Shown here: one piece after another, positions 6,528 through 48,047 of the stretch
How positions within the stretch are numbered: position 1 is the stretch's first letter
Layout of the letters: each line of letters begins with the position of its first letter
Source: a virus
Reading direction: 5' to 3' (one strand)
Virus genome (UHGV): UHGV-1377581
DNA: 48,047 bases
The notes under the pieces: model-generated
Told to the model about the DNA's origin: nothing
The model's input: the letters and a program-made list of their open reading frames with translations, nothing else
Database searches by the model: none
Translations under genes and position numbers: made by a program

Positions 6528-6597
6528 TCCGTTCTTCGTTTCGATGGGGTAATAATACCCGGCTTTCGCCGGGCGGTTTTAACAAAAAGTGCTATTT
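6528..6597 (-). promoter_or_regulatory. intergenic cassette E2 (TAGCAC-TTTT-TGTTA, hairpin CCGGC-GAAA-GCCGG, TATTAT, CCCCATCGAAAC)
   Basis: Repeated element. The TAG is the stop of the VRR-NUC gene. Confidence 0.55.
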
Positions 6598-9123: not shown

Positions 9124-9525
9124 ATGGAACAAATGGCAAAGGTTGATAAGCGAACCTTGAACGGCAATAACGGAACATCGCGCGGGAAAGATAAGAAGAA
9201 ACGTAAGCGACCGACTGGTTACTACGTGCTGAAGGATGAGGTTCGCGCCGGGTTGACTGCGCGGATGGAGCTGGTTATTGATGCCTTCGGTGGCATCGCT
9301 GGAACGGCAAAAGAGTTGGGAGTTAGTATCCAGGTTGTTCAGCAGTGGCGTAAGCGCGGCATGATCTCAGCCGATGGCGCTTATCTCGTACATAAGAGCT
9401 ACCGCCGGAACAATTGCAAAGGTTTCCGCGCCTCATTCTGCCGACCAGATTTAAGATTTGACAGCAACGGCAAGCCAGTGACGCGCCGATGCGACCGCCG
9501 GGAAATGCTACGCGTAGTCCGATAG
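9124..9525 (+). CDS. Cro/YdaS-like HTH DNA-binding protein
   Basis: HTH segment TAKELGVSIQVVQQWRKRGMIS. Divergent from the helicase. Confidence 0.5.
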   Translation: MEQMAKVDKRTLNGNNGTSRGKDKKKRKRPTGYYVLKDEVRAGLTARMELVIDAFGGIAGTAKELGVSIQVVQQWRKRGMISADGAYLVHKSYRRNNCKGFRASFCRPDLRFDSNGKPVTRRCDRREMLRVVR

Positions 9526-9600: not shown

Positions 9601-10560
9601 GTGGATTTTTACGATGAAAAAGAGGTTTTGCCGTACATGGCTGGTATGTGGCGCGAAGCGTTGCAGAACATTTGCGGCATCCACTCTCGATACTTCAACG
9701 GCAAGCACCAGGACTGCCCGAACTGCGGAGGCAAAGACCGATTCCGCTGGACTGACAAGTTAGAAACGCGCGGCGACGGCGGCGCATACTGTGGCGGCTG
9801 CGGTGCCGATAAGGGGATCGGATGGTTAATGAAGTTGAGCGGCGAGCCGTATAGCGAGTGCATCAACATTCTTGGGCGATACTTGGGCAAAGTTCCGCAA
9901 GAATACGTGGTCAAGAGAAACAAGCAGGTAGCTCGTGATAACGGGTATGACTACGGAAAGATGGCAGATCATGAAAGAGTGCTGGCAGTTTTAAACAGAA
10001 CGGAGGCCGTCGATAGCACGCCTGTAACGCTCTATGAGGGCATTGAAAATGAGCATATCAAATCATATCAGGTTGGCGTAAAAACTAACGAGAACGGCAG
10101 ACAGGAGCTAATTCACGCGCTACCGATGCAACTCGTGCATGAAGATGGGCTGGATGATGAGTATTGCAATATCCTGTTCATTGATGAAGAAGGTAGGGAG
10201 AAGATGCTAGCTGGAGATCTGACCTTCGGATCGGTGATAGTGACCAATCAGAGCGACGACGGTAACGGGCCGATTTACCTTGCTCGATCCTGGATTGAGG
10301 CGATGCACTTCAATATTGCCAGTTCGTTCAAGTGCGACGTTTGGGCCTGCATCATACCTTCAAACGTCGAGATCGTGGCGTACAGGTATAAAGGCAGGGG
10401 CGGAGAAGGTAAGCGAGAAATGCGGGTAGTTTGCCGTCGTGGAGATCGGGATATGCTGGCGGCTGCCGACGATAGGGATCTCAAGGTTATCGTTCCGAAC
10501 GGCGACAACTTCAAGCTCGGCTTTGAGCGTAAGTTATACAAGGCATCATCTCTTCTCTGA
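9601..10560 (+). CDS. DNA primase-like protein with N-terminal zinc-binding motif
   Basis: CPNCGG...CGGCG zinc ribbon. Position next to the helicase. GTG start with a strong SD. Confidence 0.5.
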   Translation: MDFYDEKEVLPYMAGMWREALQNICGIHSRYFNGKHQDCPNCGGKDRFRWTDKLETRGDGGAYCGGCGADKGIGWLMKLSGEPYSECINILGRYLGKVPQEYVVKRNKQVARDNGYDYGKMADHERVLAVLNRTEAVDSTPVTLYEGIENEHIKSYQVGVKTNENGRQELIHALPMQLVHEDGLDDEYCNILFIDEEGREKMLAGDLTFGSVIVTNQSDDGNGPIYLARSWIEAMHFNIASSFKCDVWACIIPSNVEIVAYRYKGRGGEGKREMRVVCRRGDRDMLAAADDRDLKVIVPNGDNFKLGFERKLYKASSLL

Positions 10561-10580
10561 TTAAATATTGACCAGAATTT

Positions 10581-10616
10581 AGGTAAGATTGAGAAAATCA
10601 GTCTTACCTTTTTTTA
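10581..10616 (+). terminator. rho-independent terminator after the primase (GGTAAGATTGA...TCAGTCTTACC plus T7)
   Basis: Hairpin plus T-tract. The stem is itself built from the GTAAGA motif. Confidence 0.55.
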
Positions 10617-10617
10617 T

Positions 10618-10980
10618 GCCTGAAATTCAGTGGCTTGCAACTGGTCGAACCACTTTAGGTAAGATTTAGTAAGATGAATCTTACGTAAATTTCGCGCAAA
10701 ATTTAACCAATTAACCGCAATATATAGATAGTAAGTATATGATAAATAACAATATTATTATTATCACTCTGTCTGTATCTATCAATCTTGGTAAGATTTC
10801 TCCGGGGTACGTGTCTTTTTTCGCTGGATTTCGCGCAAGATTTTTCATGGATATTTACCTATAGGGATCTTACTATCTTACCGATTTGCATTAACTCGAT
10901 GAAATATATAGGAAAAATCACGTAAGATGCATCTTACTAAATCTTACGTAAATTTCGCTCATTTTTTGACCAGTTGGCGA
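10618..10980. promoter_or_regulatory. regulatory region with perfect palindromes GTAAGATGAATCTTAC (about 10669) and GTAAGATGCATCTTAC (about 10922), a direct repeat ATCTTACGTAAATTTCGC, and an AT-rich module (10719-10808)
   Basis: Multiple operator-like inverted repeats. The AT-rich 90-bp module recurs inverted at 42331-42420. Confidence 0.55.
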
Positions 10981-11056
10981 ATAGCACTTTTTGCCTTGCA
11001 CCTGGAATCGTGATGCGTATACTTAACTCAACGAAACCACAAACGGAGTGATACCA
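10981..11056 (+). promoter_or_regulatory. cassette E5 (ATAGCACTTTTTGCCTTG, TATACT, leader CTCAACGAAACC) driving the recombination operon
   Basis: Box1/box2 match without an upstream gene. Confidence 0.5.
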
Positions 11057-12103
11057 ATGGCTGAAGCAATTTTTAAGGCATACACCAACGCGGAATTATC
11101 CAACGATGATTACCACGATCCTAACTCCTGGTGCGCCAGATACGTTAGCGGCTCAAGCCTCGGCGAGATTTACGCAACCTCCCCGGCCCACTGGAAATAC
11201 AAGGAGCGAGAAGAAACAGCCGCGCTTTCATTCGGCACTTGCTCCCATACCTGCATGCTTGAGACGTCCAAATTTAATGGCGAGTACCTGCGAGCGACCG
11301 CGCCGGGCGACGTTAAGGATCTGATTACTTCGAAGTCGGCATTGTCTGCGAAATTGAAAGCGTGTGGCCTGATTGGGACGTCCAACAAGGACTACCCCGA
11401 ATTGCTGGAAATGGCATACCGCGCCGGGATTGATGTTAACGTGTGGTGGGCGATCGAACTCTGCGACGAAAGCGCCGCCATCAACTCAGGCCGGAAGCTG
11501 GTCAAGGATTCTGATTTCGATGCGGTCGTGCAAATGCGAAACGTGATGCTGGCTAACCCACGGCACGCGGCGTGCATTGAATCGGATACAGCGCAACGCG
11601 AGTTGTCAATCTTCGGCGAAATTTTCGGCGTCCCGGTAAAGGTTCGGCTCGATCATGTTGACGTCGTGTCAGATCCCGAACTCATCAAAGAGTGGGGGTT
11701 TAACCCGGATGAAGTTTTCGAAGTGGTGGTGATTACCGACTACAAAACTACTCAGACCTCTAAACCGGATGACTTTGGGCGACTGGCGTTCAACCTGGGA
11801 TACTATCTCAAAATGGCATTGCAGCGCGATCTGTTCGTTAAGACGTACAACGAAAGACGCCCGGTGGTTGTCCGCCTGCTGACTCAGGAGAAAAAATCAC
11901 CGTTCGCGCCTCTCGCGTTCACGTTAACGGATCAGCAGATTGAGATCGGGCGGAAGCAGTATCAAAGCGTGATTCACCAGTACGCCGAATGCGTCAAGCA
12001 TGACGTTTGGCCGTCATACGAATCGAACGCAGCGGAAGTGAAGTTGCCCACGCCGCAATTCGTGAAATACATGTTCCCGGAAGTATACGGCACAAATAGC
12101 TAA
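11057..12103 (+). CDS. RecE/lambda-exo-like PD-(D/E)XK exonuclease
   Basis: D...ITDYKT nuclease core. First gene of the exo-ERF-SSB module. ATG with SD GGAGTG (the ORF track starts at GTG 11048). Confidence 0.55.
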   Translation: MAEAIFKAYTNAELSNDDYHDPNSWCARYVSGSSLGEIYATSPAHWKYKEREETAALSFGTCSHTCMLETSKFNGEYLRATAPGDVKDLITSKSALSAKLKACGLIGTSNKDYPELLEMAYRAGIDVNVWWAIELCDESAAINSGRKLVKDSDFDAVVQMRNVMLANPRHAACIESDTAQRELSIFGEIFGVPVKVRLDHVDVVSDPELIKEWGFNPDEVFEVVVITDYKTTQTSKPDDFGRLAFNLGYYLKMALQRDLFVKTYNERRPVVVRLLTQEKKSPFAPLAFTLTDQQIEIGRKQYQSVIHQYAECVKHDVWPSYESNAAEVKLPTPQFVKYMFPEVYGTNS

Positions 12104-12162
12104 ACACTACGGCGCACTTGTGATATAGTGCGCTCCACCAATCAGGAAAAGGAAAGTTTGTC

Positions 12163-12819
12163 ATGCGTACATCTGAAAGTTTCAAAGAGATCGCCGTTGC
12201 GTTAATCAAAGCGAAGTCTGGCTTCGTCGCCGCGAAGAAAAGCGGGAAGAATAGCCACCTGGGTAACACCTACGCCAATCTCGGCGATATCCTGGACGCC
12301 ATCGGGCCATCGCTGGAAAAGAACAAAATTATGGTTATTCAATCAATGATGGATACCAGCACAGACAAGGTTATGCACCTTGAAACGATGTTCCTGCACG
12401 AATCTGGCGAGTGGATGGCGTTTCAGTTCAACATGCCGATCAGCAAAACCGTTGAGCAAGCGTATGGATCGACCACCTCATACGCTCGCCGTTATGCGTT
12501 AGCCGCCGCGCTGGGCATCAAGCAGGCCGACGATGACGCAGAGATCGCGAAGATGAAGCCGCAAGACTTCAAAAAACGCATTGATGCGTGCGAAGACCTC
12601 GAATCTCTCCGCGAGATTTACAAGCTGGCTAAACAGACGTTGACGCCTGCGGAATGGAAGGTGACGGAAGACGATATCACGAAGCGCCAGGCGCAACTAA
12701 AAGTGACGCCAGCGAACGGATTTAACCCCGGCAAGCCACAAGATGTTGCGAAACGTGAGCCGGAACAGGTAGAATCAAAGCCTGAACCTGAATCACAAGA
12801 TATCTCATCTTTCAACTAA
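12163..12819 (+). CDS. ERF-family single-strand annealing protein
   Basis: ERF-like N-terminal domain, acidic C-terminal tail. Positioned between exonuclease and SSB. Confidence 0.55.
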   Translation: MRTSESFKEIAVALIKAKSGFVAAKKSGKNSHLGNTYANLGDILDAIGPSLEKNKIMVIQSMMDTSTDKVMHLETMFLHESGEWMAFQFNMPISKTVEQAYGSTTSYARRYALAAALGIKQADDDAEIAKMKPQDFKKRIDACEDLESLREIYKLAKQTLTPAEWKVTEDDITKRQAQLKVTPANGFNPGKPQDVAKREPEQVESKPEPESQDISSFN

Positions 12820-12855
12820 TTTAACCGGGCGGGAAACCGCCCCATAGGAAAAACA

Positions 12856-13320
12856 ATGCATGTTGTAACAGGGGTAATCCGAAAAGCGCCTTACGTAAAA
12901 GAGGGCAGCAACAATAACGGGCCGTGGAAGATGTATGCGGTAGACCTGTCGGAGCGAATGAAGATCCGCAATCGCGACGGCCAGGACGAAACTGTATACA
13001 CCAACTATCGCGCCGTCTTCTTCGCGAAGGAAAGCATGATTGCGTGGTACGATGAAGCGTTGCAGGTCGACAAGGTTATTAGCGTAACCTGCCGGACACT
13101 TCAGATCGTAAACCGCGAGCACAACGGCGCAACTTACAGCCACAATGAAATGATTATGCCGCAACTGGAATTCAGCCAGCGCGAACCAGCGCAGGGCGGC
13201 GGTAATCAGCAGGGTGGGTGGGGCCAGCCTCAGCAACCTAAGCCGCAACAACAACAACCGAAGCCGCAAAGCGGTGGTGGTAATCATGGCATGGATTTCG
13301 ATGATGATATCCCGTTCTGA
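12856..13320 (+). CDS. ssb: single-stranded DNA-binding protein
   Basis: OB-fold, Gly/Gln/Pro-rich linker and the canonical acidic tail DFDDDIPF. Confidence 0.85.
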   Translation: MHVVTGVIRKAPYVKEGSNNNGPWKMYAVDLSERMKIRNRDGQDETVYTNYRAVFFAKESMIAWYDEALQVDKVISVTCRTLQIVNREHNGATYSHNEMIMPQLEFSQREPAQGGGNQQGGWGQPQQPKPQQQQPKPQSGGGNHGMDFDDDIPF

Positions 13321-13414: not shown

Positions 13415-15706
13415 ATGGCACTATACAGACAAGGCAAAGCCGCGATGGACGCAAACGGCATCGTCACCGGGACTGGAACTAACTGGCAATCAGCGCTAAC
13501 GCTAATTCGCCCAGGCGCTACGATCCTGTTTTTATCGTCCCCGATTCAAATGGCGGTAGTTAACAAGGTTGTAAGTGATACGCAAATCAATGCTATCTCC
13601 ACAAACGGCGCGGCTGTTCCGTCCAGTGATTACGCGATCCTGTTAAGCGACTCCCTGACCGTTGACGGCCTGGCGCAGGATGTTGCGGAAACTCTGCGTT
13701 ACTACCAATCGCAGGAGACCGTCATTGCTGAGGCGGTAGATTTCTTTAAGGACTTTGATTTATCCACTTTGCAAGAATTGGTAGAACAGGCAAAAGAGGA
13801 AGCTGCAGCAAGCCAGCAGTCAGCATCAGCAAGCCAGCAGTCAGCATCAGCAAGTCAGCAGGCATCGGCAGCAAGTCAGCAGGCAGCGGCAGCAAGTCAG
13901 CAGGCAGCGGCAGCAAGTCAGCAGGCAGCAGATGACGCTGAAGCAACTCGCGATGAAATTCAGCAGATCATTGATGATTCCGGCGAACAGTCAACGCTGG
14001 TTGTATTGGCTCAGCCAAATGGTGCTAAAAACATAGGGCGCTGTAGTGACATTGCGACCCTACGGACAATAGAGCCGACATTACCAAACCAAAAGATAGA
14101 AGTCATAAAATATGCCTCAGGCTACAAGCCAATAACTGGCTATTTTGAGTATGATCAAACTGACAGTACATCCGTTGATGACGGAGGTATCTGCATTGTC
14201 ACTGCTGGTGGAAAGCGCTGGAAGCGGATTTTTGATGGTGCAGTAAACGTTGCATGGTTCGGTATTCCATCGGATGGCGATATAACCAACGCTATCAATA
14301 AGGCGATTTCATATGCCAAACCAAAACGTTTGGGTTTAGTTATCTCTGCTGGACAGTATAAATACACTGGTTCGGAAATGCTGGAAATTGACTTGGGATT
14401 TATATCCTTAGTCTGCCATGTAGGTTGCGCGTCAATAGATTTTTCTGGTGTAACCTCCACTTACGCCATTAACGTCTATTCATCAGCAACATATCCAGCC
14501 CCACTGTACCGCAACACAGTCAACAAGCTGTCCGGGATTGAATGCTTTGGTGCTAAAGTTGCTGGTAAAAATGGATTACTTATCGGCAGGCCCGGTGGCG
14601 CGCAATATTATAATGGACAGTGCTGCATAGAACATTGCTCATTCCATGACTTCGATTATGTAGTTTCTTGCGCAAACAGCACCTGGAGGTACAAGTTCAA
14701 TGAGTGCGTTATTACTAAGGGAATAACTTCGATATTCTATGCTCCGGCTGGTCTTTTAGATTCAGGCGAGAGCATAACGTTTAATGGTGGGATGGTTGCA
14801 GACGCAAGCGGCGCACCGATCATAATTGCATGTGACGCTTTCAATCTTGGCCTTGACGGCACATCAACTCTTAATACAAGAGTTCAGATCACCGGAAATG
14901 GGGCTACAGTATCAATGTCTGGAATGGGTAACATAGAAAACCCTGGGCAGTCGGTGTGGTATCCTTACGTTACCTGTACTGGCACTGGTGCAAGATTTAT
15001 TCTTTCTGAAAGCACACTGACCATTAATCAGCCATTAGCACAAACACAGCCTATAATTTATGTCGGAATAAACGCATTCATAATATTTAATGTGGTTAAA
15101 TTTCCTGGTAATTCATACAAATTCGAACAGAACTCATCGGATATGGTTCGGGCATTTGTTGAGGGGCCTGGATCTGTAATGTGCAATGCTTGTACTAGCG
15201 ACATAGCATCAGGAGCCGGAAATATTCCTGTACACCGATCTTTGTCACCTGTTTATAATTCAGGTTTTGAGCAGGGTAATAATACCGGATGGTCAATTAA
15301 TAACGCTGGTTCTGCATCACAAACTGCCGTTGTGTCTGCGGAGTATGCGAAGGCTGGGTCATACGGCATGAGGATGACTTCAATCGCCGGGTTGAGCATT
15401 TTTGCAACTCAGCAGTTTAACGTAAAACCAGGACAGTATTATATGACCTCTTTTTGGGCAAGGGTTGTAAACATCGGCGCAAATGGGAATGCGGCTGGAA
15501 ATATAAACCTCTCATTCTACAGCCAAAACGGAACACATATTGCTGGCCCTACAGCTAACCTTCCGGTTAACGTTGCAGATTGGGCTGTTTATGGGAGCTT
15601 TATAAGAGGTATCGTTCCTCCTGGAGCGGCAACGGCAGTTATTTCTATGCGCGCGTATGATGGCGCAGTTGTCGATTTCGATGGCGTTCTAATAAACTTT
15701 ATCTAA
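13415..15706 (+). CDS. tail fibre with internal ASQQ heptad repeats, beta-helix-like central region and C-terminal carbohydrate-binding-like domain
   Basis: 763 aa, convergent to J. 21-bp tandem repeats, Cys/His-rich pectate-lyase-like stretch, C-terminal lectin-like domain. Confidence 0.75.
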   Translation: MALYRQGKAAMDANGIVTGTGTNWQSALTLIRPGATILFLSSPIQMAVVNKVVSDTQINAISTNGAAVPSSDYAILLSDSLTVDGLAQDVAETLRYYQSQETVIAEAVDFFKDFDLSTLQELVEQAKEEAAASQQSASASQQSASASQQASAASQQAAAASQQAAAASQQAADDAEATRDEIQQIIDDSGEQSTLVVLAQPNGAKNIGRCSDIATLRTIEPTLPNQKIEVIKYASGYKPITGYFEYDQTDSTSVDDGGICIVTAGGKRWKRIFDGAVNVAWFGIPSDGDITNAINKAISYAKPKRLGLVISAGQYKYTGSEMLEIDLGFISLVCHVGCASIDFSGVTSTYAINVYSSATYPAPLYRNTVNKLSGIECFGAKVAGKNGLLIGRPGGAQYYNGQCCIEHCSFHDFDYVVSCANSTWRYKFNECVITKGITSIFYAPAGLLDSGESITFNGGMVADASGAPIIIACDAFNLGLDGTSTLNTRVQITGNGATVSMSGMGNIENPGQSVWYPYVTCTGTGARFILSESTLTINQPLAQTQPIIYVGINAFIIFNVVKFPGNSYKFEQNSSDMVRAFVEGPGSVMCNACTSDIASGAGNIPVHRSLSPVYNSGFEQGNNTGWSINNAGSASQTAVVSAEYAKAGSYGMRMTSIAGLSIFATQQFNVKPGQYYMTSFWARVVNIGANGNAAGNINLSFYSQNGTHIAGPTANLPVNVADWAVYGSFIRGIVPPGAATAVISMRAYDGAVVDFDGVLINFI
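13801..13930 (+). repeat. six tandem 21-bp repeats (GCAAGCCAGCAGTCAGCATCA / GCAAGTCAGCAGGCAGCGGCA) inside the tail fibre gene
   Basis: Direct reading. Encodes ASQQSAS/ASQQAAA heptads. Confidence 0.8.
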
Positions 15707-25993: not shown

Positions 25994-26650
25994 TTAAGCG
26001 TTGGTTACAGGTAAGAAAACGTGCGAACCTTTAAGTGCAACGTTGAGGGTCACGGTTTCCATTTCGTTGACAGCCGTCGACGGGATATCATCGAAGGAAG
26101 CCGTTCCAGACCAATAACGAACTTCCGCCGCTCGCGGTACATACATGTACATCGCTTTCGCCTCTTTGCTCGCATCGGCAGCACGCAGAACCGGGTAGAT
26201 CGCGTTGTCGTACTCATGCGCAAATTGGTAGTTGAGCGTTACCGCAGATTTGTAGGTCGGTTCGGACTGCTCGCGTTCGTCGCTCAGGCACTGATAGTTA
26301 TAATACTGCTGCTCGTTACCATCCTTGCCCAAATCCTGAATACATGGCAATTCGATCCAGTCAGTGACGACGCTCACGCTTCCGGTTGCGGCGGTTGGAT
26401 ACTTGTTGGTGTCGGAGGTGTCGAACTCCTCAAGTGTTGCCACGCCTGCCGCCACTGCTTTTACGCGAGCCACCTTGTTAACAAAGTCGCCCCAAGTGCA
26501 ATCGGTAAAGATTACGATATCGTTAACATCGAGCGCACCATCTGCCACCGTGATTTTTGGGTTTTTCGCGTCGTTGGTCATTGCGGTGAACGGAACCTCC
26601 GCACCGCGAGTCTTCTCAAAGAAGACCTTTGCACCGTTTGGTAAATGCAT
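25994..26650 (-). CDS. major tail protein
   Basis: Position and size (218 aa), followed by a strong leader region. Confidence 0.65.
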   Translation of the reverse strand: MHLPNGAKVFFEKTRGAEVPFTAMTNDAKNPKITVADGALDVNDIVIFTDCTWGDFVNKVARVKAVAAGVATLEEFDTSDTNKYPTAATGSVSVVTDWIELPCIQDLGKDGNEQQYYNYQCLSDEREQSEPTYKSAVTLNYQFAHEYDNAIYPVLRAADASKEAKAMYMYVPRAAEVRYWSGTASFDDIPSTAVNEMETVTLNVALKGSHVFLPVTNA

Positions 26651-26806
26651 GTTGAATACTCCTGTTTTGATGAAAGTTTAACAACGCCATTATGCCCGCT
26701 AGTTAGCTGGATGGCAAGAAATTATAAGCGCCTCGTACAGACATGCGTAGCGTCACAACCCGCATTTCATTAACTGCTGCTTGATTCAATAAAAATCTTA
26801 CTCCCG

Positions 26807-27241
26807 TTAGGTAAGTGCATACCCGTTCGCCTCCGTTTGTTCACATCTTACCGTAAAGCGAACGGGGAAGAACCACCCGGTTTGCGCCTTCTGAACCCCA
26901 TGAACCTCAGCCCACTCGCTTACGTAAAGATCTAATTTATCGTCGCCTAAGATTTTACCTTCAGGGAAATATTTTGCAACGTTTTGCGCGATTAACCTTG
27001 CGGCATCGGTGCCAGTTCCGGGTTTAAAGATCACATCGACCTGAGCCAGCCCCAGGTAAACGCGACACTCCCTGGAGAGGCTAACAGATCGGGAATCCGC
27101 TTCGACGTATGAAAATTTAAGATACGTGTCGCCGTTGGCTGGCGGCGTAAAGTCAACGTTATCGCTCGCGATCTTAATCCCGTTATCGGAGGCAAATTTA
27201 GCCGCCGCTGCCTTGCATTTTAACGCAATATCATAGTGCAT
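26807..27241 (-). CDS. tail terminator / tail completion protein (gpU-like)
   Basis: Gene order. Confidence 0.4.
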   Translation of the reverse strand: MHYDIALKCKAAAAKFASDNGIKIASDNVDFTPPANGDTYLKFSYVEADSRSVSLSRECRVYLGLAQVDVIFKPGTGTDAARLIAQNVAKYFPEGKILGDDKLDLYVSEWAEVHGVQKAQTGWFFPVRFTVRCEQTEANGYALT

Positions 27242-29963: not shown

Positions 29964-30476
29964 TTACGCCCCACCAGTAGCGGTAGCGGCTGGCGCGGTT
30001 GCGTCCTGCGTTAACTGGATTTTCACCAGGACTACGCCATCTTTGTTTTTGAACCACTCGCCAGTGTGAGTGTACCCGGTTTTGATTAGGCCAGCATCGC
30101 CTTTTGCCACGGTGCCATCATCACCGAAAGTTACCGGCGACTTAAAAGCACAATCAGCTGCGGTTACGGTAGATGCAGCGCGACACCACACGCGGCCATG
30201 CGTCATAACGTTTACGGCGGAAAATTTGTCGTATTTGAATTCCGGCGATTGGTAATGGGAATGAGTGGTTACGCCCACCAGAACAGCATCAGCAGTTTTA
30301 GCGGTATCGACCACTTTATGACCATCAACAACGCCACCGGACAACGCGACCAGAACGCCAGTTAAAATGTCATTTGCAGCGGCACAGGTGCCGTCGATGT
30401 TGTACAGCGAAGTATCCGCGATCTGGCCCGGAATGCAAATATCGCGCTTGCGGGTATAGGTTGCAGGAATTGCCAT
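29964..30476 (-). CDS. head decoration / auxiliary head protein
   Basis: Position between the scaffold and MCP genes. Confidence 0.4.
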   Translation of the reverse strand: MAIPATYTRKRDICIPGQIADTSLYNIDGTCAAANDILTGVLVALSGGVVDGHKVVDTAKTADAVLVGVTTHSHYQSPEFKYDKFSAVNVMTHGRVWCRAASTVTAADCAFKSPVTFGDDGTVAKGDAGLIKTGYTHTGEWFKNKDGVVLVKIQLTQDATAPAATATGGA

Positions 30477-30527
30477 GATTAAATCTCCTTGTTTTGGATT
30501 TTGTAGCGGCCCGAAGGCCGCACGGTA

Positions 30528-31658
30528 TTAGTTACGGAATTTGGCTTGCGGGTCGATGATGTTAGAACCATCGAGTTTCGGCGCGCCTTTCTTGTCTTCC
30601 TGCTCACCATCTTCTTTTTTGGCGAAGACTTTAGAGCGATTGCTTGCCATCTTATCAGAATTGGAGATAAAGTCAAAAGAAGCGTCGATATACGAATCTT
30701 CTTTATCTGACAAGTCGCGGCCATCCGCTTCTTTGATGTAAGCAACTTTCATCGCTTTAACGTCCAGGCTGTCGCACTTGATGCCAGCGGCGGAGACGAT
30801 CGCGACAACTTTCTGCTTCGCGTCTTCGTCGGCTTTGATTTTGGCAACGCGTGCCGCCACTTCATCTTCAATGCCATCAACTTTGGTTTGAAGTGCGTCG
30901 CGCTCTGCGGTGATGCTCGTTACCTGACTGGTTGCGGTTGCGATCTGTGCGTCCAGTTTAGCAATATGTGCGCCTACGTTATCGGCTACTTCGACGTCTA
31001 CGCCGTCAATTTTGATAATCATCGTTTTAGCTCCTTTGTGGTTTGAGTCGTCATCATAGGGAAATTCTTGCTCACTATCAAGATTTAATTTCGCAATTCC
31101 CGCACGCCCGCGAAAAACAAGCGCCACATGGTTAACGCGAATCTTCGTTTGCACGGCATCAAAGCGAACCCAATCAGAGACGGAATCGTTTTTCAGTTCT
31201 TCGAAGTTTTCCGGTAGGTCTTCATCGAAGTAGTATTCGCCCGTCGCGTTGTTGCCCCAGCCTTTTTTGTCGATATCGATCGAGGTGTACCCAACGGACA
31301 ATTCAGCCGCTACGCGCCGTTTCGCCTGCTCGATCGACTCCCCGTCGTAAATCATCACCGGAACCAGAACCCCGATCCCGTCCTCTTTGCCAGCGCCGGA
31401 ACAGGATCCGACCACCAGCCCTTTCGCGTTTTTGGCGTTGACCATCTTGTGACCCAAAGTAATTGGCTTGCCTTGGTATGACGCCAGCGATTCAGCGTCG
31501 AACACCTCGGAGCGCGGGCGAAACTCAACGCGTGGGCCGTTCGGGGTCTGGTAGGTCTGTGCGCCGATACGCGCAACGATCGGGGTATCGACCAGAAAGC
31601 CGTTTTCATCAAAGCGGGCCTTCACCTTTACCGTGTCGAATCTTTGAACTCTTTTCAT
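30528..31658 (-). CDS. prohead protease/scaffold protein
   Basis: Coiled-coil Ala/Lys/Glu-rich C-terminal half typical of scaffolds. Position after the head morphogenesis gene. Confidence 0.5.
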   Translation of the reverse strand: MKRVQRFDTVKVKARFDENGFLVDTPIVARIGAQTYQTPNGPRVEFRPRSEVFDAESLASYQGKPITLGHKMVNAKNAKGLVVGSCSGAGKEDGIGVLVPVMIYDGESIEQAKRRVAAELSVGYTSIDIDKKGWGNNATGEYYFDEDLPENFEELKNDSVSDWVRFDAVQTKIRVNHVALVFRGRAGIAKLNLDSEQEFPYDDDSNHKGAKTMIIKIDGVDVEVADNVGAHIAKLDAQIATATSQVTSITAERDALQTKVDGIEDEVAARVAKIKADEDAKQKVVAIVSAAGIKCDSLDVKAMKVAYIKEADGRDLSDKEDSYIDASFDFISNSDKMASNRSKVFAKKEDGEQEDKKGAPKLDGSNIIDPQAKFRN

Positions 31659-32425
31659 TGTAATTCCTCTACGTTATTAAAATCGGGAACCGCCCAGCAA
31701 CGGCAACCGTACTCCTCGCCGGGAAAAATGCCGTCACCGTTTACGCGGCGTCGCTTACCTTCTAGTTTGATGTGGCTTTCGCGTTCGCGGTCGTCCATCA
31801 TGCCGAACCAAAAGTAATGCGATACTTTAGCATCTTTTAGTCGCTGCATCATCAACATACTGTTAAAACTTCCGATAATGCCGCTCGCCCGGTTGCGCGA
31901 CCAACTGCCATAAATGGCGTATCGGCCCTCGATGATTTCATCGATCTGTTCGCGAGTCTTGCCGATGTTGTTGGCGGTTCTAACTTTCGTTGTCCAGTCA
32001 GCGACGATATCGGCTGTTAACTTCTGGATTGATGCCTTTGCGGTGTCCTGCCATTTCTTCAGCGCCTGCTGATACCACTGCTCATAACCACCAGCGCCGA
32101 ACTCCTTCAGCATCATGACCGCTTCATTATCGCGCCCGCCAGCCGCCAGTGCAATAACCAGCCACTGCTTAGAGTTGAAGCGGTAGATAGTCAGGCCAAT
32201 GGAGGCAAGCGCCGCAATGACGGTGACAAAGAACGCGATCGCCGCCTCGTTGATATCGTCTTCCGCCTCGTTGATTTCCTCTGCCGTGGCGTCGAACTTC
32301 AGGCGGTCTAACCGATCCCGCATTTCCACCACCAGATCGGTTGTCGCGTCCTTCATCAAGCGGGATAAATCCCGCTCGCTTGCTTCAGGATAACGCCAGT
32401 TTGGAATTCTGCCGTTAACTTTCAT
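31655..32425 (-). CDS. head morphogenesis protein (SPP1 gp7 / Mu F family)
   Basis: C-terminal signature FGMMDDRERESH...CRCW. Confidence 0.65.
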   Translation of the reverse strand: MKVNGRIPNWRYPEASERDLSRLMKDATTDLVVEMRDRLDRLKFDATAEEINEAEDDINEAAIAFFVTVIAALASIGLTIYRFNSKQWLVIALAAGGRDNEAVMMLKEFGAGGYEQWYQQALKKWQDTAKASIQKLTADIVADWTTKVRTANNIGKTREQIDEIIEGRYAIYGSWSRNRASGIIGSFNSMLMMQRLKDAKVSHYFWFGMMDDRERESHIKLEGKRRRVNGDGIFPGEEYGCRCWAVPDFNNVEELQ

Positions 32426-33734
32426 CGCCGCCTTCCTCCGTGTTGTTCAGGATCTGCGTGCTTTGCGTTTTGGTCTTGCTTGACCCTGACGTGCGATCCG
32501 GTAGCTGCTTCTGTTCCGGCGCATTTCCCTTCAATTTCAGTTCGGGAACCATCGCGGATAGAGTATCGCGCGCTTCGTTCGCGTCAATGACCTGATCCGT
32601 AACCAGTCCTTGTACTGCTTCGGCGTTTTTCTTAAAGATATCAGCCTTCTCTGAATCGGTCGGCAGTGACAGCGGTTCGAACTCTACGCTGAAGTCTTCC
32701 TCAGTGACGATGAATTGTAGCAGGAATTCTAACAGCGGTTTGTAGTCGTCGTTGCGCTTCCGCTCCACCAGCTTATAAAACGTCTGCAACGCAGTGTTTT
32801 GGCTGGCACTAACGCCACCTGTGTTTTTGTTCTTCAGTACAATTTCGTGAATACCTGACAGCGCGACAATCCGATCCATTTTGGCGGACAAGAATTCCGG
32901 GATGCCTGAAATATCAGAGTTAATCACGGTGTATTCTTCGTCGTCCGCATCAATGCCGATCGTGTTACCAACACCGGAATTCGCGTCAACCTGTGCCATG
33001 CGCAATCGGGCCGCGTATTCGCCCTCCCTGTCGTCGCAGATTAGAGCAAGACCTTTGGCCTTCCATACGCCCTGCTGCTTACGCTTCAGCAACTGCGTTG
33101 CGAGGTACTCCGAATAATCGTAATCAAGAATCGCTTCAATCATCGACTTGTTCAGCACCGTACCGCCAGCGCCCTTGTTGAGTTTTCGCACCTTGTTGGT
33201 TACGCGCTCGCCGTCGATGTAGTGCATGCGGGTATAATGCACGTTAAAGTCGCTTCCGCCGTTTAGCGGCTTAACGGTGTACATTTTAGGCTTGCCGAAT
33301 CGTGGGCTTCGCGGGTTCTTCTCCTCCTCCGCTACGGACACCGAATCGTAGTCGTAAACGACAATTGATTCCAGCGGCTTGCCTCGCTTCGCGGCTGAAG
33401 TCAGCATGCGGCCATCGTTAACCATCGCCAGGATGTAAGAGCCACCATACAGGCGCGCCCAGCAGAGGGCATCGGTGATTTGCGGCTCAAGTTTAAGGCC
33501 GTCCCACTCTGACTGGAATTTAGTATTATCGGAGACGCCGTTAAGCTGGAATCCGGGCGACACCATTTCTTCCGGGATCACGTCAACAATCTTTTTCGCC
33601 AGTCCGTTGCTGTGATAGAACTCCTCGATTTGCGACATATTCCCGAACGTGCTTGCAATCATCGCCGTGGTTGACGCGTACCCCGCGCCACCATTGAAGA
33701 TCTGATTGTAATCATCCATCTTGATAGCTTTCAT
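32415..33734 (-). CDS. portal protein
   Basis: 439 aa, immediately downstream of TerL, acidic C-terminus. Confidence 0.8.
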   Translation of the reverse strand: MKAIKMDDYNQIFNGGAGYASTTAMIASTFGNMSQIEEFYHSNGLAKKIVDVIPEEMVSPGFQLNGVSDNTKFQSEWDGLKLEPQITDALCWARLYGGSYILAMVNDGRMLTSAAKRGKPLESIVVYDYDSVSVAEEEKNPRSPRFGKPKMYTVKPLNGGSDFNVHYTRMHYIDGERVTNKVRKLNKGAGGTVLNKSMIEAILDYDYSEYLATQLLKRKQQGVWKAKGLALICDDREGEYAARLRMAQVDANSGVGNTIGIDADDEEYTVINSDISGIPEFLSAKMDRIVALSGIHEIVLKNKNTGGVSASQNTALQTFYKLVERKRNDDYKPLLEFLLQFIVTEEDFSVEFEPLSLPTDSEKADIFKKNAEAVQGLVTDQVIDANEARDTLSAMVPELKLKGNAPEQKQLPDRTSGSSKTKTQSTQILNNTEEGGDES

Positions 33735-40393: not shown

Positions 40394-40465
40394 GTTTTTG
40401 CTCCTCTGTTTCGATGGGGTAATAATAACGCATTGCCCCGATCGAGTTTTAGCAAAAAGTGCTAC
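40394..40465 (-). promoter_or_regulatory. cassette E10 (TAGCACTTTTTGCTAAAAC, 22-bp spacer, TATTAT, CCCCATCGAAAC)
   Basis: Repeated element. Confidence 0.55.
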
Positions 40466-41059: not shown

Positions 41060-41135
41060 CTTCATCACCTCAGTTCGTTGTCGATGGGTAAATAATACCG
41101 GATCTCGCCATCGGCGTTTTAGCAAAAAGTGCTAT
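41060..41135 (-). promoter_or_regulatory. cassette E11 (TAGCACTTTTTGCTAAAAC, hairpin GCCGATGGC, TATTAT, CCCATCGACAAC)
   Basis: Repeated element. 22-bp spacer. Confidence 0.55.
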
Positions 41136-41483: not shown

Positions 41484-41561
41484 TTCGGTTTCCTCGGTTC
41501 GTTGTCGATGAAGAGATAATACCCGATCTCCCTGACCGGGTTTTAACAAAAAGTGCTATTT
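41484..41561 (-). promoter_or_regulatory. cassette E12 (TAGCACTTTTTGTTAAAAC, hairpin CCCGG/CGGG, TATTAT, leader CATCGACAAC)
   Basis: Repeated element. 22-bp spacer. Confidence 0.55.
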
Positions 41562-42140
41562 CGTGGTGGTTGCCTCCTGGCTGATATCGCTGGCGTTCAA
41601 TCCAAGATCGATAGCCGCGAACAAGGTCGCCTTGTAAATCCCGGTCAGGGCATTCCCGGCGAAGTCTACGGCAAGAGCGGCCACTAAACCCTTAATCCGC
41701 TCCCGCTCGGAGATAGCGCCCTGCCGCCTGTACGCCTCGGCCTCCAGGTGTGAGGCGGTCGTTGCGTCGAACTCGGTAAAGACGGAGATTAACCCCGCCC
41801 CCAGGCTCACCCGCAACACTTCTCCCGGCTCCAGGAGTTTCAGCAACGGCCTGCGGAAATGGTTGTCGACCGGATTAACGCCGAACTTCTCCACGAACTC
41901 CTCCGCCGTCATCTGGATACGCCGCCCGCCATCCAGGAACATGCGTCGGATCTCGGAAGAGCGGTTGCCAGTGAATGTGCCTTCAGTCTTCGCTGCTTCC
42001 TGGCTCCGTCCGGCTGGCCTGGTGGCTTCACCAAACGTGATGGATTGCAGCCATTCATGGTAAGCGGCTTGCTTATCTGCGTCGTACCGCATCCACTCGG
42101 ACACGTCGACCTCTTCGAACTCATAGCCTTTATATTGCAT
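41556..42140 (-). CDS. hypothetical protein, first gene of the leftward early operon
   Basis: ORF. Possible start MQYKGYE with SD GGGGGAAA. Confidence 0.5.
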   Translation of the reverse strand: MQYKGYEFEEVDVSEWMRYDADKQAAYHEWLQSITFGEATRPAGRSQEAAKTEGTFTGNRSSEIRRMFLDGGRRIQMTAEEFVEKFGVNPVDNHFRRPLLKLLEPGEVLRVSLGAGLISVFTEFDATTASHLEAEAYRRQGAISERERIKGLVAALAVDFAGNALTGIYKATLFAAIDLGLNASDISQEATTTK

Positions 42141-42155
42141 TTGTGTTTCCCCCAC

Positions 42156-42718
42156 ACTTACGGCGTTTGGTAATGTTTCGGAAGGTGATAATACAGGCCG
42201 CAGGCCGCGCCGTCAAAGGGTTTCGGCGTGTTTGGTAAGATTTGCTGTCATCCACTATATATCCCTATATACATTTTTTCGCGGCGGAACATCTAAAAAT
42301 TATGGCTTGCGCAAGGAGAATCCATAACCTCCCCGGAGAAATCTTACCAAACATATATAAAGATAAAGAGTAATAATAATAATATTATTATTTATCATAT
42401 ACTTACTATCTATATATGGGCTTATATTGGTCACTTTTTGTGCAACTTTCTGGTAAGATTTTTCCTCCCACACATTCCCACACGCCCTAAATGTTGGGGA
42501 AACACACGCACCGTTTTGGCAGGATTTGAACGGCGAATTATGTGCATAGTGCATACATTTATGCAATTCGTTGCAAATCATGAAACACTCCAAAAATCGT
42601 TGCACAAAATGAAACAATCAAAAGCAATCATGATTCGTCAAAACTAATCACCAGGGAATCAGGTGCAATCACCATCTATTCCGCTATTCCGAATCGGTGG
42701 AATAATCAGCAATCGCAG
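42156..42718. promoter_or_regulatory. divergent regulatory region: GGTAAGAT motifs (about 42232, 42341, 42451), inverted AT-rich module (42331-42420), TGCATA/ATGAAACA/TTGCAA repeat cluster (42500-42660)
   Basis: Direct reading. 650-bp non-coding stretch between divergent operons. Confidence 0.55.
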
Positions 42719-42803
42719 GAATAGCATTTTTTGTTAAAACCCACCCGATCGGCTTTGCTATGATGACTTCAACGAAACGAATTGAGCCAAAGGGGCTAAA
42801 GCT
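42719..42803 (+). promoter_or_regulatory. cassette E13 (ATAGCATTTTTTGTTAAAAC, hairpin CCGATCGG, TATGAT, leader CAACGAAAC)
   Basis: 22-bp spacer. Drives the rightward operon. Confidence 0.55.
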
Positions 42804-43085
42804 ATGAAACTTCAACGCGAATCAATCAACCTGGGCAGCGAGTATAACGGCAAGTGGAACTTCGTTATCATGGATAGCGACGCCGACAAGATCGAAGCGG
42901 TTGAGGAAGCGTTATGCGAAATGGCCACTGGCTTCTCTGTCGGCGGCGAAGATAAAACCTGGGGCGACTACTGCGACCAATGCCCTTGCTATGACGATGG
43001 TTATGGCTCCGGCTTCTGGATTCCGGTCGAAGATGTTCCGGCTTTCAAAGAGGCGTACAAGGCAGCGAAGAAAGCAGTGAAATAA
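42804..43085 (+). CDS. hypothetical acidic protein with CxxCxC cluster
   Basis: ORF with SD AAAGGGG. Acidic composition. Confidence 0.55.
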   Translation: MKLQRESINLGSEYNGKWNFVIMDSDADKIEAVEEALCEMATGFSVGGEDKTWGDYCDQCPCYDDGYGSGFWIPVEDVPAFKEAYKAAKKAVK

Positions 43086-45610: not shown

Positions 45611-45820
45611 ATGAAATTCACGATCGCAGTAATGACCGCACTATTTTCTATGTATGGGCCTGGTGCTCTTATCTTTCCAATCATGATTTTGTGGGTTTGT
45701 GGGATTGTTGACGTCATGCACCACAAAACGATGATTAATATCAGAGTGAATCGCCTAATTAGCGATATCGAAGGCGCTTGCAAAAACACTAAATTTACGG
45801 TGGTGAAATATGATATATAA
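45611..45820 (+). CDS. small membrane protein (two predicted transmembrane helices)
   Basis: Hydrophobic segments. SD GGAGAA. Confidence 0.5.
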   Translation: MKFTIAVMTALFSMYGPGALIFPIMILWVCGIVDVMHHKTMINIRVNRLISDIEGACKNTKFTVVKYDI

Positions 45821-46555: not shown

Positions 46556-48047
46556 ATGTTTTTAAATGACCGCGTGTCCCCACAAGATATTATTGCCATC
46601 GCAGAGAAGGAAGGCATCAGCCCCTTGCGCGTCGCCATCCGTGCGAACGGGTATCGCGACTCCGTTTCTTTCTGGCCCAAGCCGAAAGATATCGACGTAA
46701 ACGCGGATAAATACCCAACAATCTCGATCGCCAATGATTACGATGTGGTCGGCAAGCTGGCGCTAAATGCAGCGCGTTCTGTTCAGTTCCCGGAATCATC
46801 CGCTTACATGCACTTTCTCGGAACCGTGTCCGCCGCGATGATGGGTCGCTTTTGGGTCGAGTACCACGGCAGCGAGCAACCGACAACGCTTTACGTTATC
46901 ACGTCGCAGCCGCCTTCCGCTGGTAAGTCTGCCATTAACTCGCTGGCCATCGATCCGATCGTCGCCGAAGTCGAGCGCATTAACGAGTCGCGCAAGAAGG
47001 AGCGTAAGAAAATCATGGCGAAGCTGTCCGCCAACAAGCAGGCGCTAAAAGGGGAGTTATCGCAATCTGATATGGTGAAACTTTTCGAGGATCGTGACGA
47101 ACTGGAAGAGAAACTTGAAAAATTATGTGATCTAACTTTCCCGGTATCCGATACCACCCCGGAAGGTCTGGCGAAGATTAACAACCGCCAGGGCAACTTT
47201 GCCGTTATCTCGGATGAGGCGACGGCGGTTAACAGCCTTTTGGGGATCACGTATGGCAACGATGGTGGCAAGAAGACGAACAGCGAACTGGTGCTCAAAG
47301 CATGGGATAAAGGCCACGTATCGATCGCTCGTGCCGACGTTAGCAATAATATGTCATTTGTGGCTTTGGGCTGCATTTGCGTAATTGCACAGGATGAAAC
47401 CATCGACGCCATCATGCAAGCGGGTTCTCGCGGGATCGGTGTCTCGGAGCGTTTCCTTTTGGTTCGTGAGCAAACCCGTTTAGGCGAACGCGTGTTCATC
47501 GACGAAAACGGGAATTCGACCTATGAGCCGATCGACCAGTCACTGAAGGCAGATTACTTCCGGCTGATTCATGACATTATGAGCGAGTCGAACGTTAAGT
47601 TGCAGGTTACGGATGCAGCCATGCGGAGACTGAATAAGGCCCGCCAGGAGTTAGAACCGGAGTTAGGCGACGGCGGCAAGTATTCGCATACTATGCTTCG
47701 CGGTGCGATGGGTAAGTTTGATAAGCAGGTTATGCGTCTGGCTTCCGTGATTCACACGATCCGGAACTGGCAACCATGCGGGAAGCGCTCGAAGAAGATC
47801 GACACGGCGACCATTGACGAAGCGATCATCATGTTCCATGAATTGAGCAAAACGTATTTGTCGTCGGCTGACTCTTCCGGCTTTGCTGGTGAGGGCGCGG
47901 AAATTAAAGCGCTGTATGACGTTATCGCCAGTCGTTGCAAACAGGCAAAAGGTGTTATGACCGTCCAGGGCATTTATAACGCCTGCCGCAACCTGAAGAT
48001 CTTCAAAGGCCAGGCCGGGGTGAGCAAAAAGATTAAGGAACGCTTAT
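46556..48047 (+). CDS. P-loop NTPase replication protein (DUF3987/primase-associated helicase-like), truncated at the 3' end by the window
   Basis: Walker A motif QPPSAGKS. Open to the last base. SD CAGGAG. Frame continues at window base 1. Confidence 0.55.
   Translation, partial: MFLNDRVSPQDIIAIAEKEGISPLRVAIRANGYRDSVSFWPKPKDIDVNADKYPTISIANDYDVVGKLALNAARSVQFPESSAYMHFLGTVSAAMMGRFWVEYHGSEQPTTLYVITSQPPSAGKSAINSLAIDPIVAEVERINESRKKERKKIMAKLSANKQALKGELSQSDMVKLFEDRDELEEKLEKLCDLTFPVSDTTPEGLAKINNRQGNFAVISDEATAVNSLLGITYGNDGGKKTNSELVLKAWDKGHVSIARADVSNNMSFVALGCICVIAQDETIDAIMQAGSRGIGVSERFLLVREQTRLGERVFIDENGNSTYEPIDQSLKADYFRLIHDIMSESNVKLQVTDAAMRRLNKARQELEPELGDGGKYSHTMLRGAMGKFDKQVMRLASVIHTIRNWQPCGKRSKKIDTATIDEAIIMFHELSKTYLSSADSSGFAGEGAEIKALYDVIASRCKQAKGVMTVQGIYNACRNLKIFKGQAGVSKKIKERL

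Follow-up and report, generated by a model that had tools for sequence, protein, structure and literature searches.

The window analysed here is the whole 48,047-nucleotide (nt) sequence of the virus genome UHGV-1377581, and our subject is a non-coding, AT-rich module that occurs in it twice. The sequence is about 95% identical to many Klebsiella Webervirus genomes, which are T1-like siphoviruses of the Drexlerviridae. A gene for a DUF3987 helicase, the homologue of T1 ST9, reads across the ends of the window (47101–48047 joined to 1–622). Thus, the window holds the complete genome in circularly permuted form, with the opening inside this gene. The genome is about 91% coding, and the module lies in two intergenic spacers of 490–650 bp. 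The right (R) spacer (42156–42803, 648 bp) is divergent and separates a leftward gene for a 199-amino-acid protein (41556–42155), which is Webervirus-specific and mosaic, from a rightward DUF5417 gene (42804–43085). The left (L) spacer (10561–11047, 487 bp) lies between the genes for a 319-amino-acid primase (9601–10560, + strand) and recE (11048–12103, + strand). An earlier note on this DNA had taken the left region for a divergent control region; its flanking genes are co-directional. The L copy of the module is directly 3' of the primase gene and upstream of the recE-erf-ssb operon. The R copy is ahead of the leftward early operon, beside the homologue of the T1 pac end. In T1, recE is likewise preceded by a spacer of about 530 bp, and the T1 record begins inside the homologous divergent spacer (position 1; terminal repeat 1–2800).

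The segment at 42331–42420 had been described as an inverted copy of 10719–10808, and this repeat was recovered by MAFFT, by a repeat search and by blastn. In blastn the L and R copies align over 88 nt with 87.5% identity (100 bits, E = 4.5e-24 against the genome). The repeat search returns an inverted repeat, I1, of 125 nt (74%). The MAFFT alignment resolves a 45-nt AT-rich core with two substitutions and an identical 20-mer, TTGGTAAGATTTCTCCGGGG, at 10788–10807 (+) and 42331–42350 (−). The earlier note had raised the objection that the similarity might be no more than AT-rich low complexity. As a null we used 300 shuffles of the right spacer, in which composition was kept in 10- or 25-nt blocks. 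The real pair scores 100 bits, and the highest shuffle 33.4 bits (mean 20). Because shuffles that preserve the AT content reach only this value, the similarity is not explained by low complexity. The repeat therefore stands, with a length greater than the 90 bp first assigned to it: homology extends over approximately 205–225 bp (10678–10882 against 42459–42234) and takes in ATCTTAC, TTGCGCAAAA/ACCAAT, GCGCAAG..ATTTTT and TATAGGGAT.

The L core module (10719–10808, +) consists of an AT block (10719–10768) and TTGGTAAGATTTCTCCGGGG (10788–10807). The R core module (42331–42420, −) consists of an AT core, at least 86% AT over 42339–42420, and the reverse complement of TTGGTAAGATTTCTCCGGGG at 42331–42350. 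The full L unit (10678–10882, +) contains ATCTTAC at 10678–10684, the AT block, GGTAAGAT at 10790–10797, TATAGGGAT at 10860–10868 and two further ATCTTAC words at 10867–10881. The full R unit (42234–42459, −) is bounded by outer GGTAAGAT sites and holds TATAGGGAT at 42261–42269 together with TTGCGCAA-type words. In both copies the AT core is enclosed by an inverted pair of sites (ATCTTAC ... GGTAAGAT) 111–113 bp apart. When 29 copies from IMG/VR are stacked, they share one order of elements: ATCTTAC, TT(G/C)CGCAAAA, ACCAAT, the AT core, about 22 type-specific nt, TTGGTAAGATTTCTCCGGGG, GCGC(A/C)AG, ATTTTT, TATAGGGAT and ATCTTACC. No Rfam family reaches its gathering score in the module region, and fold stability is not above that of shuffled sequences (z-scores of −0.6 to −1.3 and +1.05).

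The short sites are strongly over-represented. GGTAAGAT occurs eight times in the genome, where 0.86 would be expected, and three of these sites (42234–42241, 42341–42348 and 42452–42459; 107 and 111 bp apart) are in the R unit, as the earlier note had reported for this region. GTAAGAT occurs 16 times against 3.9 expected, with 13 of the 16 in the two spacers (10 left, 3 right). The remaining three, including the pair at 26795/26845, lie in coding-type sequence and were rejected as regulatory sites. In the L spacer, a triple site GGTAAGAT-N3-GTAAGAT-N2-ATCTTAC (10658–10684), whose last two elements form a 16-bp palindrome, is mirrored by a second triple site, GTAAGAT-N2-ATCTTAC-N3-ATCTTAC (10922–10947; inverted repeat I2), at about −83 to −108 of the recE promoter. 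The palindrome GTAAGAT-N2-ATCTTAC has a form typical of the operator of a helix-turn-helix (HTH) dimer and is a putative site of this kind. A terminator-like hairpin after the primase gene (10581–10616, +) is built from an inverted GGTAAGA pair followed by a T-run. We compared 34 distinct Webervirus left spacers. They were picked through the flanking HTH protein, so the sample is unbiased with respect to the module. The left triple site is invariant in all 34, and the GTAAGAT sites, the mirror-image triple sites and the GGTAAGA hairpin are invariant or nearly so, while the intervening DNA is variable. The putative sites are thus under constraint, judged by this pattern of conservation.

We then asked how widely the design is shared, scanning 50-bp windows with a threshold of at least 86% AT. 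The genomes of the window phage, Roth93, T1 and Rogue1 each have exactly two such blocks, and these invariably fall in the same pair of homologous spacers; in the window they are 10719–10768 and 42339–42420. The survey of IMG/VR took in 80 loci at the HTH gene and 80 at the DUF3987 helicase gene, which cover at least seven groups of HTH recognition helix and include 47 paired contigs; the expected AT block is present wherever the locus extends far enough. In about 20 IMG/VR contigs from at least seven lineages, as in Webervirus, T1 and Rogue1, extreme AT blocks occur in these two spacers only. The k-mers most concentrated in the two spacers differ by lineage: ATCTTAC in the window (13 of 16 genomic copies in the two spacers), TGTAACA in T1 (all six) and ACGCGTA in Rogue1 (all four). 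Both T1 spacers hold an AT block with TATATAGATA, flanked by GTGTAACA/TGTTACA words. Among the 24 contigs with both blocks, the L and R copies of one genome score 70–127 bits against each other in Webervirus and as much as 119 bits in other lineages; the median across lineages is 24 bits. Outside the AT block, which was masked for this count, a mean of 13.3 flank words are shared within a genome and 7.6 in mismatched pairs. The top flank words, GGTAAGA, GTGTAAC, GCGTAAC and GATAACA, belong to one family, GnTAA(C/G). From these comparisons, the twin arrangement of AT core plus sites is conserved in design across the T1 phage family. The similarity within lineages is well above that between lineages, which implies either that the copies are occasionally homogenised or that both track a binding protein that changes.

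Recognisable sigma-70 promoters lie outside the module, 130–230 bp downstream of it (42216–42188 and 10996–11023). The first is a canonical promoter, TTGACG-17-TATTAT (42188–42216, −), for the leftward 199-amino-acid gene and the counterpart of P01 of phage TLS. TLS has only three canonical sigma-70 promoters: P01 in the divergent spacer, P51 ahead of recE and P57 of the HTH-primase operon (PMC11447400, Table S1). From the positions of P01 and P51, the two module-bearing spacers therefore host promoters of the immediate-early type. The promoter that the earlier note had placed inside the module was not borne out: hexamer matches there are at chance frequency (3 against 2.0 expected, and 2 against 2.2). 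The sole candidate −35/−10 pair common to both copies, TAGATA-17-AATAAT, falls within pure AT-rich DNA.

Both spacers also carry a 21-nt intergenic repeat of T1-like phages, previously described with the consensus aaATAGCACnnnTTGnTAAAA and as DR1–18 of TLS (PMC11447400). This is a separate, known element and not part of the AT-rich module. Ahead of recE, a cassette at 10980–11023 (+) combines the repeat AATAGCACTTTTTGCCTTGCA (10980–11000) with a −10 hexamer TATACT (11018–11023). The cassette that was said to close the R region, E13, is present at 42720–42764 (+), ahead of the DUF5417 gene, with the repeat AATAGCATTTTTTGTTAAAA at 42720–42739, 65 nt ahead of the ATG at 42804, and a −10 hexamer TATGAT at 42759–42764. 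Both match aaATAGCACnnnTTGnTAAAA, are read in the same direction as the gene that follows and precede its start codon by about 60–80 nt; the repeat search returns this repeat as family D2. Further copies of aaATAGCACnnnTTGnTAAAA are found at 6528–6595, 40398–40465, 41068–41135 and 41492–41559, all on the − strand. In these cassettes TTGnTA is about 22 nt, not 17, from the −10 hexamer, often with a GC-rich hairpin between them, and for these reasons they are not standard −35/−10 promoters.

The likeliest candidate for a protein acting at the short sites is a 133-amino-acid Cro/YdaS-like HTH protein, the T1 ST23 homologue, encoded just upstream of primase (9124–9525, +). Its family is phrog_2856, 'transcriptional regulator'; the HTH matches P22_Cro/YdaS weakly, and the nearest solved relative is P22 Cro (1rzs, E = 0.004). 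The protein is conserved in 831 phage records. Its recognition helix reads SIQVVQQWRKR in Webervirus, SNQTVQGWKER in T1 and TRQAVEEWCKR in Rogue1, lineages with different site words, and these differences are consistent with co-evolution of the protein and its putative sites. At the N-terminus (9124–9200), a segment ahead of the HTH, NGNNGT.RGKDKK.RKRP, is invariant across genera. Such a basic arm could make contacts in the minor groove where DNA is AT-rich. The phage also encodes primase, two helicases, SSB, RecE and Erf. Pfam and PHROGs scans of the neighbouring replication genes revealed no initiator of the O, gp38 or RepA type, and the 319-amino-acid primase shows only a Zn-ribbon/TOPRIM region. 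The ST9 helicase was considered as a possible origin binder similar to P4 alpha; it is a DUF3987 protein with no DNA-binding or PDB match.

We tentatively favour, without going so far as to call it probable, the reading that the two copies are paired origin-type unwinding modules, analogous to oriL and oriR of SPP1, to which the Cro-like HTH protein would bind. It is favoured because these are the only extreme AT blocks in the genome and are bracketed by repeated, partly palindromic putative sites for one protein; because the spacers are unusually long and one copy abuts the primase gene; and because the family has no known origin and SPP1 provides a precedent for two matched origins. Neither an origin nor iterons have been found in T1-like phages (PMC7718038; PMC11447400), and a search of the literature brought up no transcription start sites, transcriptomes or origins for Drexlerviridae. 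Cumulative GC skew reaches its minimum at the R spacer, which is weak evidence, confounded by the direction of transcription.

Beyond the observed anatomy, significance, family conservation, site constraint and absence of inversion isomers, we infer a mechanism that would run as follows. A sequence-specific protein encoded by the phage, most likely the Cro-like HTH protein beside primase, would bind the sites as dimers. The bound proteins would bracket the AT core and destabilise it, and primase and the helicases, with host DNA polymerase III, would start replication there, in a two-origin arrangement like that of SPP1 oriL/oriR. The same protein–site complexes would probably also modulate the immediate-early promoters 130–230 bp downstream. 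A fuller scheme, which strikes us as somewhat unlikely in all its parts, would place two matched origins in Drexlerviridae, one ahead of recE and one beside pac. Their AT cores would be clamped by dimers of a Cro-like protein that co-evolves with GnTAA(C/G) sites and also acts as the early-transcription switch. Origin firing would thereby be coupled to immediate-early shut-off and, at the pac-proximal copy, to the hand-over to recombination-dependent concatemer synthesis and packaging.

Several observations weigh against an origin. Neither spacer contains a match to the DnaA box (TTWTNCACA) or to the IHF consensus (WATCAANNNNTTR). The module was not found in real plasmids; the single match in PLSDB is an entire phage genome. 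The recE-side copy of T1 and Rogue1 lies away from the primase gene. The groups of recognition helix track the groups of site motif, but this is confounded by phylogeny, as TerS, primase and RecE diverge as much (41–66% identity). The Cro-like type of the candidate binder and its annotation as a regulator fit pure regulation at least equally well. Both spacers hold the rare canonical sigma-70 promoters of the family (TLS P01 and P51). In T1, GTGTAACA sites flank or overlap the −10 and +1 of the ST77 promoter in an operator-like manner. Finally, the orientation of the module relative to its downstream operon is conserved across genera, including T1 and Rogue1, and a symmetric origin would not need this.

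The last four of these points speak for the main rival, which we regard as possible and rather doubtful: that the spacers serve early transcription alone. They would then be the immediate-early promoter regions of the recE and leftward early operons, and the Cro-like HTH protein would repress or time these promoters at GTAAGAT. The palindromic 16-bp site pairs fit such control, as do the AGAACAA/GAAACAA words between the −35 and −10 of TLS P01 and P51. In the window phage, however, the core promoters are free of sites, the nearest being at −53 to −60 and −83 to −108, and the third canonical early promoter, that of the HTH-primase operon, has neither an AT block nor a site. In one variant, loops of about 110 bp would form around the AT-rich DNA as in the gal repressosome. 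In another, TGGTAAGAT, which resembles TGnTATAAT, may be an extended −10 promoter within the module, for which the AT core, then at about −40 to −90, would serve as UP element or as curved DNA. This assignment of TGGTAAGAT is possible on its resemblance, but no extended −10 is evident at the equivalent position in T1 or Rogue1, and hexamers inside the module match at chance frequency. With respect to the recognisable promoters, the AT block is 130–230 bp upstream, beyond the reach of an UP element. A length of 500–650 bp also far exceeds what a promoter and operator need. The origin and early-promoter readings are not mutually exclusive.

It is improbable that the AT-rich DNA is instead a platform for host nucleoid proteins of the H-NS, Fis or HU type, or a structural element such as an insulator, with the short sites secondary. 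The extreme AT content would suit such a role. GATAAAT in the AT core resembles the high-affinity H-NS motif, and the terminator immediately upstream of the L copy, here and in TLS, suggests insulation. This explanation leaves unaccounted for the lineage-specific, invariant, palindromic short sites common to both copies, and likewise the 20-nt GC-containing segment that is identical between them.

A role in packaging brings in the repeat-rich stretch at 42530–42715 (TGATT, GCAATC, TTGCA, GTGCAAC and GGAATAATCA), which is found in the divergent spacer only. The earlier note had called it iteron-like and listed words at 42500–42660. TGCATA (two direct copies, one inverted) and two copies of ATGAAACA are there, but GCAATCATGA occurs once as a 10-mer, with GCAATC(A/G) three times. 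The stretch is collinear with T1 (approximately 48760–48836 and 1–60) and with Rogue1 (45735–45805 and 1–130) and is thus positionally conserved in three genera. It is better explained as the homologue of the T1 pac-end region, and is probably the pac/terminase-recognition region of the family rather than a set of replication iterons. By homology to T1, the Webervirus pac end is expected near 42590–42620, an assignment that relies on the declared left end of the T1 record. Annotations of relatives conflict over 42453–42647, where a 35-amino-acid open reading frame (ORF) is called on the − strand in PhiKpNIH-2, one of 77 amino acids on the + strand in Roth93, and none in most records. These small ORFs are probably over-calls in non-coding DNA. 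Several GenBank records begin or finish within the module, but such ends were rejected as physical termini; those of other records are scattered from about 42211 to 42781.

Could the module itself belong to the packaging machinery, with GGTAAGATTT sites as recognition sequences of the small terminase and the AT core aiding pac cleavage? We consider this quite improbable. The R copy is indeed about 100–250 bp from the homologue of the T1 genome left end, and TerS is P22-gp3-like. AAGATTT resembles the core of the P22 pac site, GAAGATTTATCTG, and AGATTT has been proposed for TLS (PMC11447400). However, 10 of the 13 sites and a full second module are 16–31 kb away from the pac end, ahead of recE. 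The site words of T1 and Rogue1 differ and include no AAGATTT. An inverted second pac would start packaging in the wrong direction. The record ends inside the module, scattered over about 570 bp across records, reflect a manual convention, the Roth ends having been placed by hand to follow T1 (PMC12629751).

The remaining question is whether the inverted arrangement has a meaning of its own. The two copies are direct repeats outside Webervirus and inverted in Webervirus only, as seen in the 24 contigs with both blocks. Relative to T1 and Rogue1, the Webervirus recE-erf-ssb block and its upstream spacer are inverted across the tail-fibre gene (window 11048–13320 against T1 30378–32633). The copies are therefore inverted because this block, with its upstream spacer, was flipped and moved. 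As only the orientation of the module relative to its operon is conserved, the inverted repeat per se is not a functional feature; by this comparison, the inverted orientation is a by-product of the flipped recE module. The earlier note was right that the module is reused, since each of the two copies precedes an operon and is oriented to it in the same way. It also had the copies pointing outward; both point inward, into the 31.6-kb segment between them, in which two transcription units run towards each other and meet at 15.7–15.9 kb. Nor were the inversion isomers that it envisaged seen. Among 29 loci there is no chimeric module joining an L-upstream to an R-downstream part, and primase, spacer and recE are contiguous in all 34 Webervirus contigs; no inversion isomer has therefore become fixed. 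Short-term concerted evolution was ruled out, as variants specific to an R copy do not recur in the L copy of that genome; this speaks against frequent gene conversion. It is thus very improbable that the copies recombine through RecE/Erf or a site-specific enzyme to flip the 31.6-kb segment into isomers, even though they share, inverted, one stretch of 45 nt that is nearly identical and one of 20 nt that is identical, the phage has genes for RecE and Erf, and the higher similarity within than between genera implies occasional gene conversion over a long time: besides the points just given, relatives have no annotated recombinase, and in other genera the copies are direct repeats, where a crossover would remove essential genes. 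The Webervirus inverted repeat should accordingly not be taken as evidence that the genome isomerises.

T1 belongs to the seven classical T phages, and few candidates for Klebsiella therapy are isolated as often as Webervirus phages. With two segments of about 200 bp, a 7–8-bp site and a 133-amino-acid candidate binder, all of a design conserved in the family, the origin and the early regulatory circuit of T1-like phages become directly testable. Of the candidates to date for the replication origins or the master early control regions of the T1 family, the two spacers are the strongest. For phage engineering, deletions or insertions in these seemingly empty spacers are likely to be harmful. 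Three further observations were made in passing. CP124687.1, the PLSDB match mentioned above, is filed as a 49,647-bp plasmid of Paraclostridium bifermentans and matches both spacers at 93–94% identity; the record is evidently an entire Webervirus genome entered as a plasmid by mistake, and probably a contaminant. At 26769–26819 (−), about 120 nt upstream of the tail-tube gene, a short ORF, MHLPNGSKIFIESSSS, has a Shine-Dalgarno sequence of its own and repeats the first ten codons of that gene (MHLPNGAKVF...; 26621–26650, −). Inside the gene for the 763-amino-acid tail fibre, eight tandem 21-bp units (AGCAAGCCAGCAGTCAGCATC-like; 13776–13943) code for a heptad repeat rich in Q, A and S.

The elements of the design, repeats with an AT-rich core and a Cro-like binder, are of known kinds. 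The twin modules and their family-wide conservation in T1-like phages are absent from the literature searched, and recent papers report no such repeats. Origins of the lambda type consist of several dyad-symmetric, dimer-binding sites beside an AT-rich region, and nearby transcription is important for them. A summary of this type is also given in PMC11447400. Lambda has one origin, located within the O gene and built of four tandem 19-bp iterons, whereas the window phage has two copies of its module, both intergenic, in which sites flank the AT block on either side. The annotation of the T1-type primase records a similarity to the N-terminal primase domain of P4/CP-933 alpha. In P4, the alpha protein acts at ori and crr, two separated cis regions with the same short repeat, and carries its own helicase and origin-binding domain. 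The primase of the window phage, in contrast, has only the Zn-ribbon/TOPRIM region, and the DUF3987 helicase has no DNA-binding match. With lambdoid Cro/operator regions and the gal repressosome, the spacers share a Cro-like HTH protein, 16-bp palindromic sites, and sites about 110 bp apart that enclose AT-rich DNA upstream of early operons. The lambdoid and gal operators overlap core promoters; the sites of the window phage do not, and none is at the promoter of the HTH gene itself.

The closest parallel is SPP1, whose two origins, each with gp38-binding repeats and an AT-rich DNA-unwinding element, are about 13 kb apart on the circular map (PMC6316719). SPP1 differs from the window phage in having direct repeats, a dedicated replisome organiser with a DnaB-type helicase and loader, and oriL inside gene 38. 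The window phage has partly palindromic half-sites of 7–8 bp and a small Cro-like HTH protein as candidate binder. It has no recognisable initiator, loader or DnaB homologue and no sequence homology to SPP1. In both cases, however, a pac-type siphovirus of about 44–48 kb carries two distant, similarly built cis regions, one of them in a long intergenic spacer. Each region combines repeats for one phage DNA-binding protein, a candidate in the present case, with an AT-rich unwinding element, putative in the present case. Both phages also encode an exonuclease, an annealase and an SSB, which serve the later mode of replication in SPP1 and would do so here; in SPP1, the second copy and these adjacent genes drive the switch to concatemer synthesis (PMC6316719).

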